This document shows, one piece after another, positions 1 through 5,349 of a stretch of 5,349 bases of DNA. The DNA is taken from the IMG/VR virus record IMGVR_UViG_2585427776_000008; one strand, 5' to 3'. The DNA comes from a virus. Taxonomy: Duplodnaviria; Heunggongvirae; Uroviricota; Caudoviricetes. Numbering within the stretch: the stretch's first letter is position 1; the number at the start of each line of letters is the position of its first letter. A model generated the notes under the pieces. That model was given only the letters and a program-made list of their open reading frames with translations, was not told the origin of the DNA and made no database searches. The translations under genes were made by a program, and so were the position numbers.

Positions 1-732
1 TTTTTTCCACGTATCAAGCGTGATAGCACTCGTCACTTTGCATATGGCATTAAATGCCTCCGTTGATGGTAGTCTTTCACAGCCACGACCACCACAACGC
101 TGGCAGTCTCTGATAACAGGCATACCACGTTTTACCGACTCTTCACGATGAATGGCGACACCACGCCCACGGCAATCCTTACAGGCGGTGGAAACCTCAC
201 CCTTTCCGCCACACTCCGGACAGGCAACTTTTACCACCTCCCTGACTTTTTTCCATTCTTCCCAGTAAGACGGATACACACCTTTCGTACACTTTGCCCA
301 TACCGGCGGCTTACCATCCGGATACTGGACCTTGTTTGTAAAAACTACGCTTTCAATAAATTTTTCCCCATAGCAACAAGGGCACTGCTTTTTACTCGCT
401 GCGCTGCGGGCATAATCCTCAAAAGCGTACGAAGCCATAATGCGCATCACTACCGGTTTTATTTCTGCCGGGAGTTTTCTTAACGCCGCCACGCGATCAC
501 ACCGACTGAGTGCATATTCTGTCAGCAATTCTGTTGCCCGCTCTCTGTCATTCATACTAATGCCCATTTTCCCAAGGAACGCAGAAAACCCCATCTCAGC
601 CCGATTCTGTGTCATGCCCTGCGCGGCCATCACATCAGTGATACTCAGCGCATCTTTCGACGTTGAGGCCGATGCATCAGTCAGGCCGGGGGATTTTGGG
701 GAGTAGTATTTCGGTAAATCTTCCAGTTTCAT
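1..732 (-). CDS. Phage late-gene antitermination protein Q (Q82/QuuQ-like family), C-terminal end truncated by the window edge
   Basis: Hand translation of the minus strand from ATG at 732-730 gives 244 codons with no stop down to position 1 (MKLEDLPKYYSPKSPGLTDASAST...). It contains DnaJ-like CxxCxGxG zinc-finger repeats (CPECGGKG, CKDCRGRG, CQRCGGRG). The start overlaps the rusA stop in an ATGA arrangement. Position immediately downstream of rusA matches lambdoid gene order. Family assignment is from memory, not a search. Confidence 0.75.
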   Translation of the reverse strand, partial: MKLEDLPKYYSPKSPGLTDASASTSKDALSITDVMAAQGMTQNRAEMGFSAFLGKMGISMNDRERATELLTEYALSRCDRVAALRKLPAEIKPVVMRIMASYAFEDYARSAASKKQCPCCYGEKFIESVVFTNKVQYPDGKPPVWAKCTKGVYPSYWEEWKKVREVVKVACPECGGKGEVSTACKDCRGRGVAIHREESVKRGMPVIRDCQRCGGRGCERLPSTEAFNAICKVTSAITLDTWKK

Positions 733-1109
733 TTTTTGACCTGCCCTTCAAGCATTATGGGGTAAATCTTCACCCCCAGACGTCCACCAGATACTGGCTG
801 AGCACGAACGATATTGATTTCATCAAACTGCTCATCGTCCATTAGCAACCCCGCATGCGTCAGCGCATCCAGCGGCGCTTTCAGAATATTGTCCAGGTCA
901 CGGCGGCGCTTATCCGGTGGTTCTGCAATAATTTTTATTGCCAACCTTCCGGACAGGCTTAATTTCAGCCGCTGCTGGCGAACAATAAGCGCCACTGCCC
1001 GGCGATAACGCTCCCCGGCTTTTGATACAAAATATGTGCTGCCACGACGACGCCAGTAAGTGTTCACCGTTGGCGGGTAAGGCAAAACAAATTCTATGCG
1101 TTCAGTCAT
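729..1109 (-). CDS. rusA: Holliday junction resolvase RusA (crossover junction endodeoxyribonuclease)
   Basis: 126-aa ORF with the RusA acidic active-site region (PDKRRRDLDNILKAPLDAL) and overall similarity to K-12 RusA as recalled. Start ATG at 1109 directly abuts the TAA stop of the upstream ORF (TAAATG), with a GGAAAG Shine-Dalgarno about 7 nt upstream. Confidence 0.9.
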   Translation of the reverse strand: MTERIEFVLPYPPTVNTYWRRRGSTYFVSKAGERYRRAVALIVRQQRLKLSLSGRLAIKIIAEPPDKRRRDLDNILKAPLDALTHAGLLMDDEQFDEINIVRAQPVSGGRLGVKIYPIMLEGQVKK

Positions 1110-2165
1110 TTATGCTTTCCACTTCAAAACACCCGAATTTCTCGCGTGCATTAAAAAACGAATCAGCAACAACAGTTGGCTGCCGTGTTTTTCTTCAAAA
1201 TCTTTTACCCCGGCGTGTAGTTCGCTATGGCATTTACGGCACAGCGGAATAACAAACAAATCATCAGCCTTTGTTCCCATCCCTCCCAGTCCATGACCAA
1301 TGATGTGATGCGGATCATCTGCCTGATTGCCACACGTCATGCATTTCTGCGTTTTTACCCAACGCGTGTATACAGGCATCTCTTCCCGTTGTGATTTCTG
1401 GCGCTGGAGATACTGAGCCGGTGACTCCGGATCAACGGCAATGCTGACCACCGTCTTTTCCTGTGGCGGGGTTTGCTGGTGGGGGTGAGGCAGCGGCGCA
1501 AGATTTTTTGTGCGCTGCTTCAGTATGCTGGTGGCGGTCTGCTCTCCCGGTACGATGTCGCTTTCACGGTACATTGAGCGGATTTTTTCCGCACGCAACC
1601 CCAGCGAACGACGTAATACCGCTTCCGGTAGCGCGTCCGCCACCTGATTGCGGACCGCCCACCAGGATAATTCAGCCAGCGATAATTCCCGTTCCTGCGA
1701 GCCATTCATTGCATGGCGTATGACGTCAATCATCCATGCAAACAGGTTTTGGTGAGCAAGTTGCCCGAGTGATTCGGAGGTCTGGTCGCGCAGCTGGTTG
1801 TCGCAGTGCCAGCACAACACCATTGCGCCGGTACCATAACGGTGAATGACGGTTTCACTGTGGTGATAATCGCCGTGTGGCCACTGGCAGGATTTAACAT
1901 GGCGCAGTAACCAGTCAGACAATGCGCCAGCGCCACCAGCAGCACGAATCACTCGTTCGTCGCTGAAAAATGGCAGTAATGATTTATCCTCCGCCAGCGG
2001 CTGGCGAACGGCAGGAACGACCCCGGACGGCAGATTACGCATGCTTTTCGGTTCCGGCTCCACCAGTACCCGGGTATTGTGGAATACCGGCATGGATTCA
2101 CGGCCCGGCTTAACGATCACCAGCCCGAGTTCCGGTACCAGAACAGGTCGAAGTAATACCCGCAC
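1110..2165 (-). CDS. DUF968 family prophage protein (YdfU-like) with Cys/His-rich HNH-like zinc-binding motifs
   Basis: 351-aa ORF beginning MRVLLRPVLVPELGL, which I recall as YdfU-like. It has CWHCDNQ and CMTCGNQ...HHIIGH...CRKCHSELH motifs. The start is GTG at 2165-2163, preceded by a strong GGAGG Shine-Dalgarno 5 nt upstream that lies in the end of the preceding ORF. Confidence 0.8.
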   Translation of the reverse strand: MRVLLRPVLVPELGLVIVKPGRESMPVFHNTRVLVEPEPKSMRNLPSGVVPAVRQPLAEDKSLLPFFSDERVIRAAGGAGALSDWLLRHVKSCQWPHGDYHHSETVIHRYGTGAMVLCWHCDNQLRDQTSESLGQLAHQNLFAWMIDVIRHAMNGSQERELSLAELSWWAVRNQVADALPEAVLRRSLGLRAEKIRSMYRESDIVPGEQTATSILKQRTKNLAPLPHPHQQTPPQEKTVVSIAVDPESPAQYLQRQKSQREEMPVYTRWVKTQKCMTCGNQADDPHHIIGHGLGGMGTKADDLFVIPLCRKCHSELHAGVKDFEEKHGSQLLLLIRFLMHARNSGVLKWKA

Positions 2166-2166
2166 G

Positions 2167-2439
2167 TTACCTCCAGATGCGTTGCTGGAATGTGCGGGAC
2201 GGACGCGGTGGGCGTTCAGAGTAAGGAAGCCTGACGGAGATTATCCAGTGACGATAATCGAGGCTGAGGGCTTTCTTAATCTCGTATCCGCGTCTGCGGT
2301 AGTTATGAATTAGCCATTCGGCCTGTTCTTCAGTACATGGTGGGTGTTGGTACCAGTCGGTTTTAAATGCGTGTGAACGCCGCCCATGCCGGATGGCAAG
2401 GTCGGTATCAGAATTGTGAAATTTGGTTTTGTGCGCCAT
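2167..2439 (-). CDS. Hypothetical small prophage protein (90 aa); positional equivalent of rem in K-12 Qin, identity not confirmed
   Basis: Open frame MAHKTKFHNSDTDLAIRHG... with TAA stop at 2169-2167, one nucleotide before the GTG start of the downstream gene (translational coupling). The Shine-Dalgarno is weak and no recognisable motif was found. A candidate promoter (-10 TACAAT at 2491-2496) sits just upstream. Confidence 0.5.
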   Translation of the reverse strand: MAHKTKFHNSDTDLAIRHGRRSHAFKTDWYQHPPCTEEQAEWLIHNYRRRGYEIKKALSLDYRHWIISVRLPYSERPPRPSRTFQQRIWR

Positions 2440-2507
2440 CTGTTTTCTCTGCTGGCGCAGCAGGTGTCAGGTGTTCAGGCTGACGTGCGAATTGTAAACC
2501 AGAATGC

Positions 2508-2548
2508 CAGAAAAAAACAAACCCCGCCGAACCGGGTTAAGTGCGGGT
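2508..2548 (-). terminator. Putative intrinsic terminator at the 3' end of the hok mRNA
   Basis: On the minus strand, a GC-rich stem (CCCGC...GCGGG) is followed by GUUUGUUUUUUU (plus-strand A-run at 2511-2521), about 60-100 nt downstream of the hok stop. Confidence 0.45.
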
Positions 2549-2558
2549 GCGTTGAGGA
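2543..2558 (-). promoter_or_regulatory. fbi-like 3' element of the hok mRNA, complementary to the mRNA 5' end
   Basis: The mRNA sequence here (UCCUCAACGCACCCGC) is complementary to the predicted 5' end of the hok transcript (GCGGGUGCUUGAGG, plus coordinates 2921-2938), with an 8-bp and a 6-bp helix around a small bulge. This matches the tac/fbi long-range pairing described for hok mRNAs. Confidence 0.4.
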
Positions 2559-2606
2559 TGCCTGACACATCAGAGGTGGCGAGGGATTTCTCCCCCGCCA
2601 GGTCTC

Positions 2607-2762
2607 TTACTCCTCAGGTTCGTAAGCTGTGAAGACAGCGACCTCCGTCTGGCCGGTTCGGAGTCGTACCTCGCAGAGGTCTTTCCTCGTTACCAGTGCC
2701 GTCACTATGACGGTTAAACAGATGACGATCAGGGCGATTAACATCGCCTTTTGCTGCTTCAT
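2607..2762 (-). CDS. hok: Hok/Gef family type I toxin (HokD/RelF-like), 51 aa
   Basis: Translation MKQQKAMLIALIVICLTVIVTALVTRKDLCEVRLRTGQTEVAVFTAYEPEE is near-identical to E. coli HokD (RelF) as recalled. It has a single transmembrane helix and a TAA stop at 2609-2607. Confidence 0.9.
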   Translation of the reverse strand: MKQQKAMLIALIVICLTVIVTALVTRKDLCEVRLRTGQTEVAVFTAYEPEE

Positions 2763-2819
2763 AGCCTGCTTCCCCTTGCCTTTCGGCACGTAAGAGGCTA
2801 ACCTACATTTGTGAGACAT
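2607..2819 (-). CDS. mok: mok-like reading frame (in-frame 19-codon N-terminal extension of hok)
   Basis: ATG at 2819-2817 with a GAGG Shine-Dalgarno 8 nt upstream, same frame and stop as hok. This is the arrangement annotated for chromosomal mokC/hokC. Function is inferred by analogy only. Confidence 0.55.
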   Translation of the reverse strand: MSHKCRLASYVPKGKGKQAMKQQKAMLIALIVICLTVIVTALVTRKDLCEVRLRTGQTEVAVFTAYEPEE

Positions 2820-2824
2820 AGATT

Positions 2825-2900
2825 GGGCCTCAGATTAATGTTAAGCGTCTTGCAGGACGCGAAATGTTAACTGGGGCTTTTCTCTATCTGCCTTTCAGTG
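2825..2900 (+). ncRNA. Candidate Sok-like antisense RNA covering the mok translation initiation region (coordinates approximate)
   Basis: Inferred from hok/sok architecture: the region antisense to the mok Shine-Dalgarno and start. A plus-strand hairpin GCGTCTTGCAGGACGC lies at 2845-2860, followed by a T-rich stretch (GGGGCTTTTCTCTATCTGCCTTTC). No strong sigma70 promoter was identified; the best candidate is TTGCCT-17-TAACCT at 2776-2804. Confidence 0.3.
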
Positions 2901-2920
2901 TTCATGCCTGAGACAGATAG

Positions 2921-2938
2921 CCTCAAGCACCCGCAGCC
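2921..2938 (-). promoter_or_regulatory. tac-like 5' element of the hok mRNA
   Basis: The minus-strand sequence GGCUGCGGGUGCUUGAGG resembles the conserved 5' end of hok mRNAs and is complementary to the 3' element at 2543-2558. Confidence 0.4.
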
Positions 2939-2967
2939 ATTCTACTTAACTCACGTCACCTCGCCAA
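2939..2967 (-). promoter_or_regulatory. Candidate sigma70 promoter for the hok/mok transcript
   Basis: Minus-strand -35 TTGGCG (2967-2962), 17-bp spacer, -10 TAGAAT (2944-2939). The predicted start near 2932 would place the tac-like element at the transcript 5' end. Confidence 0.4.
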
Positions 2968-2999
2968 TATGAAATCAATCAGAAAGGTGATCCATAAAA

Positions 3000-3686
3000 T
3001 CACTCCTTCTCTTCTTTTCCGTAGTGGAGTTGGCCAATTTTGATAAGAGGGCGTCCCTGAGATTTGCGGTGTAGATTGGTATCGCGCAGAGAATACACAC
3101 AGCCACAATATTCCTGCTGATAGAATTTTTCGCGCTTGCTGATTTCAATCATACGGGACGAGCCGCCCTGCTTGCGCCAGTTATAATCCCAGTACACCAT
3201 ACCCGGATAATGCGCAACAGCTCGCCGCCCACACTCGTTAACCTGCTGCATATTTTTCCAGCGTGAAATGCCCAGTGAACTGCTGATCACACTGAAACCA
3301 TTTTCAGCAGCGTACAACGCTGTCCGCTCAAAACGCATGTCAAAACACATGGTACAACGGATCCCCCTCTCAGGCTCCCATTCCATTCCTTTGGCACGTT
3401 CAAACCAGTTGTCGGTGTCGTAATCAGCATCGATAAACGGCACGCCGTGTTGTTCAGCAAAGCGAATATTTTCATCCTTACGAATTAAATACTCTTTCTG
3501 AGGATGAATGTTCGGGTTGTAGAAAAAGATGGTGTAGTCGATTCCCGAGGCCTGAAGCGCCTCCATCACTTCACCGGAACATGGAGCACAGCAAGAGTGC
3601 AGTAGTAGTTTGTTTGCCCCGTTTGGGAGCTCCAATTTAGGCCGTTTGAAATCAGCAATAGTCATAAATATTTTTATTGGGGTCAT
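3000..3686 (-). CDS. queH: QueH-like epoxyqueuosine reductase (DUF208 family), putative prophage cargo gene
   Basis: 228-aa ORF carrying the DUF208/QueH hallmarks as I recall them: [35 protein letters not shown] and [12 protein letters not shown] (the Cys ligand set). There are two in-frame candidate starts (ATG at 3686 and 3665), both with weak Shine-Dalgarno sequences. The protein has N- and C-terminal extensions relative to the recalled core. Confidence 0.8.
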
Positions 3687-3862
3687 GAAAATAGCACAGA
3701 GTGTAGCATCAGAGCAGGGCTATCGGGAATATATGTCTAAATCTGGTAATATCTGGTTTTGACGCAAAGCGGACAACCACGCTGGCTCTACCCTGCGCCA
3801 TGAAAATGTCAATTCACATCTGAACTAATGCTCTTTAATCTAGTAACGTCTAAAATACCTAA

Positions 3863-3878
3863 GGAAGGTGCGAACAAG
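3863..3878 (+). repeat. IS5 left terminal inverted repeat
   Basis: GGAAGGTGCGAACAAG; the flanking 4 bp outside is CTAA (3859-3862). Confidence 0.9.
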
Positions 3879-3885
3879 TTCCTGA

Positions 3886-4911
<1,026 letters not shown>

Positions 4912-5042
4912 AAACCGGAAATAACGCCAGAAATGGTGGAAAAAATAGCCTAAATAGGCTGATTCGATGTGTTTGCGGGAAAAAAATCGGCCCAGATCCG
5001 AGAAATTTTAATCAGCGAGTCAGCTTGGGAAGAAATGACCTG

Positions 5043-5058
5043 CTTATTCGCACCTTCC
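5043..5058 (+). repeat. IS5 right terminal inverted repeat
   Basis: CTTATTCGCACCTTCC (reverse complement GGAAGGTGCGAATAAG); the flanking 4 bp outside is TTAA (5059-5062). Confidence 0.9.
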
Positions 5059-5097
5059 TTAAGTGACAACCCCGCTGCAACGCCCCCTGTTATCAAT

Positions 5098-5155
5098 TTT
5101 CTGGTGACGTTTGGCGGTATCAGTTTTACTCCGTGACTGCTCTGCCGCCCTTTTT
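5098..5155 (+). ncRNA. dicF: DicF small regulatory RNA (Qin prophage sRNA that inhibits ftsZ translation) with its terminator U-tract
   Basis: TTTCTGGTGACGTTTGGCGGTATCAGTTTTACTCCGTGACTGCTCTGCCGCCC followed by TTTTT matches the 53-nt DicF sequence as I recall it. The GGCGG...CCGCC terminator stem is present, and dicB lies about 170 bp downstream, as in the K-12 dicB operon. Confidence 0.8.
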
Positions 5156-5159
5156 AAAG

Positions 5160-5307
5160 TGAATTTTGTGATGCGGTGAATGCGGCTGAGCGCACGCGGA
5201 ACAGTTAAAACCAAAAACAGTGTTATGGGTGGATTCTCTGTATCCGGCGTTAATTGTTAACTGGTTAACGTCACCTGGAAGCACCAGGCACCGCATCACA
5301 AAATTCA
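5160..5307 (+). repeat. Perfect 19-bp inverted repeat (arms 5160-5178 and 5289-5307) enclosing a 110-bp spacer between dicF and dicB
   Basis: Arm 1 is TGAATTTTGTGATGCGGTG; arm 2 is CACCGCATCACAAAATTCA, its exact reverse complement. The spacer contains three GTTAA motifs (5249, 5256, 5264) and a small CCTGG/CCAGG hairpin. Arm 2 ends 18 nt before the dicB ATG. Confidence 0.8.
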
Positions 5308-5324
5308 TTGTTGAGGACGCGATA

Positions 5325-5349
5325 ATGGAAACGTTATTACCAAACGTTA
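5325..5349 (+). CDS. dicB: Cell division inhibitor DicB, first 8 codons only (continues beyond the window)
   Basis: ATG at 5325 with a GAGGA Shine-Dalgarno 7 nt upstream. METLLPNV matches the DicB N-terminus recalled as MKTLLPNV, directly downstream of DicF. Confidence 0.7.

Follow-up and report, generated by a model that had tools for sequence, protein, structure and literature searches.

The 5349-nucleotide stretch of caudoviral DNA analyzed here (hereafter, the window; IMG/VR record IMGVR_UViG_2585427776_000008) contains an insertion sequence that abuts, across a short native leader, the genes of the division inhibitors DicF and DicB. This arrangement is best explained by an ISKpn26-mediated deletion in a lambdoid prophage with a Qin-like dicF-dicB module, which would now be silent or expressed at a low level (an overall probability of about 0.7). 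The initial annotation had pictured the element as an insertion upstream of dicF, but comparison with related prophages indicates that the IS mediated a deletion, in which the repressor gene was removed as well. The net effect is most likely that a toxic prophage module was disarmed rather than activated. As a class, such events, that is, IS-mediated deletions in the course of prophage decay, are ordinary and already known.

The probable deletion joint and its ancestral alleles

The IS in the window (Table 1) is flanked by two different tetranucleotides, CTAA at its left end and TTAA at its right. IS5 inserts at YTAR targets, which are duplicated on insertion (PMC5009759). Both flanks of the window element fit this consensus but derive from two separate places, and the matching 4-bp YTAR duplication that is the mark of simple insertion is absent; given this mismatch, the junction is not the product of a simple insertion. 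The places from which the two flanks derive can be seen in related alleles. DP051 has the IS-free allele, with a single CTAA at the left position (site A) and the TTAA of the right position (site B) 3735 bp further on. In TOE17, DLI.5a and AST46, the IS resides at site A, with the same left site as in the window; in TOE17, the element has CTAA at each side, as in a simple insertion, followed by the 3735 bp and then by the TTAA that precedes dicF. Positions 1-5058 of the window, including the left junction, are 99.8% identical to TOE17, DLI.5a and AST46, positions 5059-5349 are 100% identical to TOE17 DNA located 3.7 kb further on, and DP051 and TOE17 share 99.97% identity across the stretch from site A to site B. 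As expected of a deletion, the left IS junction is the original one, the right end of the IS abuts DNA that is distant in the undeleted alleles of TOE17 and DP051, and the new junction lies at a TTAA that fits YTAR and has been used by three independent simple insertions. The window is the third member of an apparent allelic series that leads from the IS-free state to the IS at site A and then to a state in which the right end of this IS is joined to site B.

The segment that is absent from the window contains, in order, the rest of the DUF977 gene, an O-like HTH replication gene, ydaT, a cro-like gene, a cI-like repressor gene, the divergent/early-left promoter region, ydfA, ydfB, ydfC and a small hypothetical gene. 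The suggestion that dicF-dicB are severed from their native promoter is borne out by this comparison: the 3.7 kb with the early-left promoter and ydfABC, present in TOE17 and DP051, are missing here. The deleted cI-like repressor, as encoded in TOE17 and DP051, consists of 139 amino acids and shows 29% identity to DicA over 112 residues; it is a heteroimmune homologue. Exact searches with the 32-nt right junction yielded no match among GTDB species representatives or metagenome contigs, and neither this specific junction nor the recurrent TTAA target was found in the searchable literature.

The initial description of the immediate vicinity of the junction stands. DicF starts 39 bp from the right end of the IS, and the reading frame that runs from the IS end across the junction into DicF is open; this frame is probably an incidental by-product of the fusion. 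At the position that corresponds to the beginning of dicB in the window, dicB is annotated in TOE17, DP051 and K-12.

Table 1. Features of the window and of IS insertions at site B in other genomes
Feature	Sequence	Position	Strand	Basis or remark
CTAA, target tetranucleotide of site A, left flank of the IS	Window	3859-3862		Within the 3' end of the DUF977 gene
IS element, 1196 bp	Window	3863-5058	+	
Left inverted repeat of the IS	Window	3863-3878		GGAAGGTGCGAACAAG
Transposase gene, 326 aa	Window	3931-4911	+	ORF list; reads toward dicF
Untranslated 3' end of the IS	Window	4912-5058	+	Terminator scan, RNA fold
Chimeric ORF, IS end into DicF, 33 aa + stop	Window	5035-5136	+	ATG 5035, TGA 5134-5136
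Right inverted repeat of the IS	Window	5043-5058		CTTATTCGCACCTTCC
TTAA, target tetranucleotide of site B, deletion end point	Window	5059-5062		
Native leader retained upstream of DicF, 39 nt	Window	5059-5097	+	
DicF sRNA, 53 nt	Window	5098-5150	+	Rfam RF00039 and K-12 annotation
Best sigma-70-like match near the junction	Window	5133-5160	+	PWM scan, consensus match only
T-run directly after DicF	Window	5151-5155	+	
dicF-dicB spacer	Window	5151-5325	+	RNA fold
dicB, first 8 codons (METLLPNV)	Window	5326-5349	+	ATG 5326; ended by the window edge
ISKpn26 at site B	SCPM-O-B-9504, SCPM-O-B-7615			Orientation as in the window
Genuine IS5 at site B	F95			Orientation as in the window; dicF followed by kil
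Genuine IS5 at site B	B379			Opposite orientation; Qin-type prophage with dicA/dicC
TTAA duplication	L002 (SCPM strain)	5900-5903 and 7100-7103		
TTAA duplication	L004 (strain F95)	about 4889-4892 and 6088-6091		
TTAA duplication	L005 (B379)	about 3922-3925 and 5121-5124		

Identity of the insertion sequence

The element shows the characteristic features of the IS5 family, namely, a length of approximately 1.2 kb, 16-bp inverted repeats (GGAAGGTGCGAA...), which agree at 15 of the 16 positions, and one ORF, of about 326 codons, for the transposase. Its initial designation as IS5 has to be revised, given that the identity to genuine IS5 is 92.4% (73% in the last 100 nt), compared with 99.7% (four mismatches) to the ISKpn26 copies in complete Escherichia coli genomes. 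The transposase at the corresponding place in TOE17, WP_000019473.1, is assigned to the ISKpn26 family in the RefSeq annotation. The four mismatches to the canonical ISKpn26 (positions 4341, 4350, 4356 and 4386) are clustered, all fall in third codon positions, and the window has the IS5 base in each; no identical copy of the element was detected among 5,426 complete E. coli genomes. This patch could reflect either a short gene conversion from a co-resident IS5 or a consensus of mixed IS reads.

Proposed formation of the joint

The proposed sequence of events would begin with the entry of ISKpn26 into the CTAA at the 3' end of the DUF977 gene, a state that would survive in TOE17, DLI.5a and AST46. 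The right end of the element would then have been joined to the TTAA 3735 bp away, 39 bp upstream of dicF, either because a second copy, in direct orientation, hopped locally into the TTAA and the two copies recombined, or by a single-step intramolecular transposition of the right end into site B. Either route would take out the cI/DicA-like repressor, the cro-like gene, the replication genes, the early-left (dicBp-type) promoter and ydfABC, and both yield the identical final sequence. The IS copies in TOE17 and in the SCPM strains are themselves identical, so that polymorphisms within the IS are uninformative with respect to the route. In mutation-accumulation lines, IS5 prefers targets within a few kilobases of the donor (42 events were observed within 5 kb, where 7.8 would be expected), and recombination between such neighboring direct copies gives rise to deletions (PMC5009759). 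None of the 5,426 complete genomes searched was found to carry the IS at both A and B; the two-step route thus has no observed intermediate, and the one-step route is equally possible.

A recurrent IS target next to dicF

The native sequence of site B, ...ACGCTTAAGTGACAACC..., is found in K-12, TOE17 and DP051. The flank that includes dicF-dicB was identified 10,684 times, in 4,629 of the 5,426 complete genomes, and four of these 5,426 genomes carry an IS5-family element at site B; all four are simple insertions with a TTAA duplication (Table 1). The full configuration of the window was found in none of the 5,426. The initial annotation had named, as one observation that would speak against it, the possibility that the same junction is the standard K-12-like arrangement with the upstream genes intact; K-12 lacks an IS at this place, and elsewhere the IS is rare. 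The right junction, ...CCTTCC-TTAA-GTGACAACC, is identical across the three strains with the same orientation (the two SCPM strains and F95). The window differs from SCPM-O-B-9504, SCPM-O-B-7615, F95 and B379, all of which retain the upstream ydfABC and the immunity region and have matching TTAA duplications. Besides the window, these genomes represent at least three independent events at site B.

The ydfC-dicF interval of K-12 contains six YTAR sites, and all the events occurred at the one nearest to dicF, the TTAA at K-12 coordinate 1,649,343. For four events at one of six equal sites, a rough, post hoc estimate gives p ~(1/6)^3, or ~0.005. Destabilized AT-rich DNA of the SIDD type was considered as the cause of such a hot spot, but simple GC content gives no sign of it: the surroundings of site B are not AT-rich (51-59% GC within 25-50 bp on each side). 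Any upstream insertion would be polar on dicF-dicB, so that selection for polarity fails to explain the use of this exact site, and target preference is the simpler reading of the repeated use of the TTAA. A single TTAA used by two IS species, in both orientations, would be a small but testable addition to the known IS5 hot spots.

DicF and the sequences around it

The DicF RNA itself is unaltered. The Rfam model RF00039 matches positions 5099-5150 over its entire length (model positions 1-52 of 52) with 76.7 bits, compared with the gathering threshold of 48 (E=3e-16); the sequence is identical to K-12 dicF (b1574) at 53 of 53 nucleotides, and the terminator hairpin forms in RNA folds. The 39-nt leader is identical to that in TOE17, differs from the K-12 leader at one position (5086) and holds the RNase E-side context ...UAUCAA/UUUUCUGG. 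In the dicF-dicB spacer, a long-range stem is predicted between about 5158-5178 and 5283-5305 (fold energy of -87.6 kcal/mol, z=-4.78), which may provide a double-stranded RNase III substrate at the 3' side of DicF. The same spacer (plus strand) gives a sub-threshold match to STnc100, a Salmonella sRNA family (38.4 bits against the gathering threshold of 47).

In K-12, the only route to DicF is through cleavage of the polycistronic transcript initiated at dicBp: RNase III sets the 5' end of a 190-nt species, approximately 137 nt upstream of the 53-nt form, and RNase E generates the 53-nt DicF (PMC10448788). In the window, this repressor-controlled transcript, the known requirement for DicF biogenesis, is not available, the promoter, ydfABC and the region of the RNase III site all being missing. 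The 5' context on the RNase E side and the terminator of the 53-nt form remain intact; the RNase III site for the 190-nt precursor is lost.

Promoters, terminators and the expected expression of dicF-dicB

A simple scan for sigma-70 promoters on the plus strand detected none in positions 3700-5349; between 4900 and 5098, no convincing promoter was found by the simple scan or by the position weight matrix (PWM), and the 39-nt leader holds no sigma-70-like site of note. The best candidates for a hybrid promoter that span the IS end or lie within the leader, ATGACC-18-TTAAGT and GTGACA-19-TGTTAT, were rejected, with PWM scores of only ~3.3-3.5, where scores of 4 or higher occur 157 times in the window. 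The best sigma-70-like match in the vicinity of the junction consists of a -35 element GTGACT, a 16-nt spacer and a -10 element TAAAGT; with a PWM score of 9.2, it is among the top 15 in the window, both strands included. This match is native sequence that overlaps the DicF terminator and is located downstream of the 5' part of DicF, so it could serve dicB only. No internal promoter has been detected experimentally in the dicBF operon (PMC10448788), whereas older work (Cam et al. 1988), as cited there, proposed a promoter upstream of dicB. The 5133-5160 match may correspond to this proposed promoter, which recent work did not detect, and accordingly dicB may not be wholly dependent on upstream transcription.

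The scan for terminators and the RNA folds reveal no intrinsic terminator on the plus strand between the stop codon of the transposase gene (4911) and DicF (5098); the hairpin at 4947-4960 is followed by a T-run on the minus strand only. Read-through by transposase transcripts is therefore possible in principle. The dicA gene is essential in K-12 because DicA holds the dicBF operon down (PMC11481867). In the proposed scheme, dicF-dicB would have lost the only promoter that is backed by experiment, and the loss of the repressor would be tolerated because the promoter was lost along with it. DicF and DicB would be either silent or produced at a low, sub-toxic level via transcripts that read out of the co-oriented transposase gene.

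Alternative explanations

A simple insertion that separates dicF from ydfC and leaves the operon upstream of the IS whole is the exact arrangement found in SCPM-O-B-9504, SCPM-O-B-7615 and F95, but as an explanation of the window it has next to no chance, being refuted by the left flank, which is the queH/DUF977 region rather than ydfC, and by the unequal tetranucleotides (CTAA/TTAA). The joint is also quite unlikely to be an assembly artefact, in which one ISKpn26 copy at site A, the TOE17 arrangement, and another at site B, the SCPM-O-B-9504 arrangement, were collapsed and the intervening 3.7 kb dropped. Although each of the two junction types occurs separately in real complete genomes, none of these has the IS at both sites, and short-read assemblers usually break at multi-copy IS and seldom traverse them. 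The four IS5 bases in the window element, which has no identical copy among the 5,426 genomes, could fit a mixed-read consensus, but these third-codon-position differences fit a short gene-conversion patch equally well, and IS5-type deletions of such size are common (PMC5009759).

The initial annotation had also invoked the capacity of IS5 to activate silent operons when inserted upstream. Under this scenario, read-out from ISKpn26 or an enhancer in its 3' end would result in constitutive, physiologically meaningful and repressor-free expression of DicF and/or DicB, with the exclusion of ManYZ-using phages by DicB as a possible benefit. The transposase gene indeed faces dicF with no intrinsic terminator in between, and chromosomal IS5 insertions have been found to raise the expression of a downstream reporter, for which read-through was proposed, and in one chromosomal context, an upstream IS5 raised the expression of a promoterless reporter enough for selection; however, outward expression from the ends of IS5 was absent or very weak on plasmids (PMC5526668). 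The 3' end of the IS lies next to the gene, as in the activations of fucAO, flhDC and glpFK, but in the documented cases the IS acts on a silenced promoter that is already in place, and the effect requires the IS5 3' segment (PMC2753651), whereas the 39 nt left here contain no detectable promoter and experiments revealed none in the operon; moreover, the divergence between the 3' ends of ISKpn26 and IS5 is such that the properties of the latter cannot be assumed for the former. The intact 5' processing context and terminator of DicF and the phage protection conferred by DicB (PMC10448788) count in favor of this scenario, but strong expression of dicF-dicB would be toxic, and the reversed insertion at the same site in B379 points to target preference over orientation-dependent selection. 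Thus, IS5-type activation of dicF-dicB is unsupported, and meaningful constitutive expression appears unlikely.

Other features of the prophage

Further loci were noted in this prophage and in those of F95 and TOE17. A full-length match to the sok antitoxin RNA (Rfam RF01794; 120.5 bits against the gathering threshold of 59) is located at 2757-2932 on the minus strand and adjoins the hokD coding sequence at about 2607-2762 (minus strand), so that the type I toxin-antitoxin locus hok/sok is apparently complete here. The prophage also has a gene, at 3000-3686 on the minus strand and thus between hokD and the replication module, whose annotated product is the epoxyqueuosine reductase QueH, which acts in queuosine modification of tRNA. 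In F95, DicF is followed by a kil-type division inhibitor gene in place of dicB (L004 6359-6580), which shows that the inhibitor gene that follows a conserved DicF is exchanged as a module. An IS1 truncates the exonuclease gene located downstream of dicB in TOE17 (L001 11217-13001), a further sign of IS-driven decay in this prophage lineage.

Implications and comparison with known systems

An ISKpn26-mediated deletion leaves the current understanding of DicF/DicB and IS5 unchanged and will not surprise a specialist. It does provide a clean natural case, with the ancestral alleles kept in other strains, in which an IS strips the regulatory core of a prophage and spares the toxic cargo, and in which an otherwise essential repressor becomes dispensable when its promoter goes too. 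A more far-reaching proposition is that the TTAA is an IS5-family hot spot where insertions and deletions time and again uncouple dicF-dicB from the prophage switch, with weak read-out from the IS, in same-orientation cases such as the window, providing a constitutive, sub-toxic dose of DicB/DicF that is beneficial to the host. If true, this would mean that an IS had domesticated a toxic prophage module, with a benefit such as exclusion of ManYZ-dependent phages or metabolic tuning, but this is very unlikely to be the case.

Among the characterized systems, the Qin dicBF operon of K-12 (dicA/dicC - dicBp - ydfABC - dicF - dicB - ydfD) shares with the window DicF over 53 nt, the 39-nt leader, the dicF-dicB spacer, the start of dicB and the order of dicF and dicB. 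In contrast to Qin, the window lacks the promoter, ydfABC and the repressor genes, and its leader is bordered by an IS. The prophage from which the window derives is a different one as well: its repressor is only 29% identical to DicA, and its integrase is the one that in F95 is located next to potC, not at the Qin site. The local-hop deletions described for IS5 (PMC5009759) are similar in that YTAR is present at both ends, the ends are a few kilobases apart, and one IS copy remains, with non-matching flanks; the differences are that here the deletion is found in a natural isolate, that the element is ISKpn26, and that the two-copy intermediate is not seen. The IS5 'mobile enhancer' cases (bglGFB, glpFK, flhDC and fucAO; PMC2753651, PMC5493358) also involve an IS5-family element upstream of a silent locus, with the IS 3' end proximal and the site recurrently hit. 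In those cases, however, the resident promoter is kept, whereas in the window it is deleted; site B is not AT-rich, and one natural insertion is reversed. The orientation of the 177-bp 3' segment fits, but the last 100 nt of ISKpn26 are 73% identical to those of IS5.
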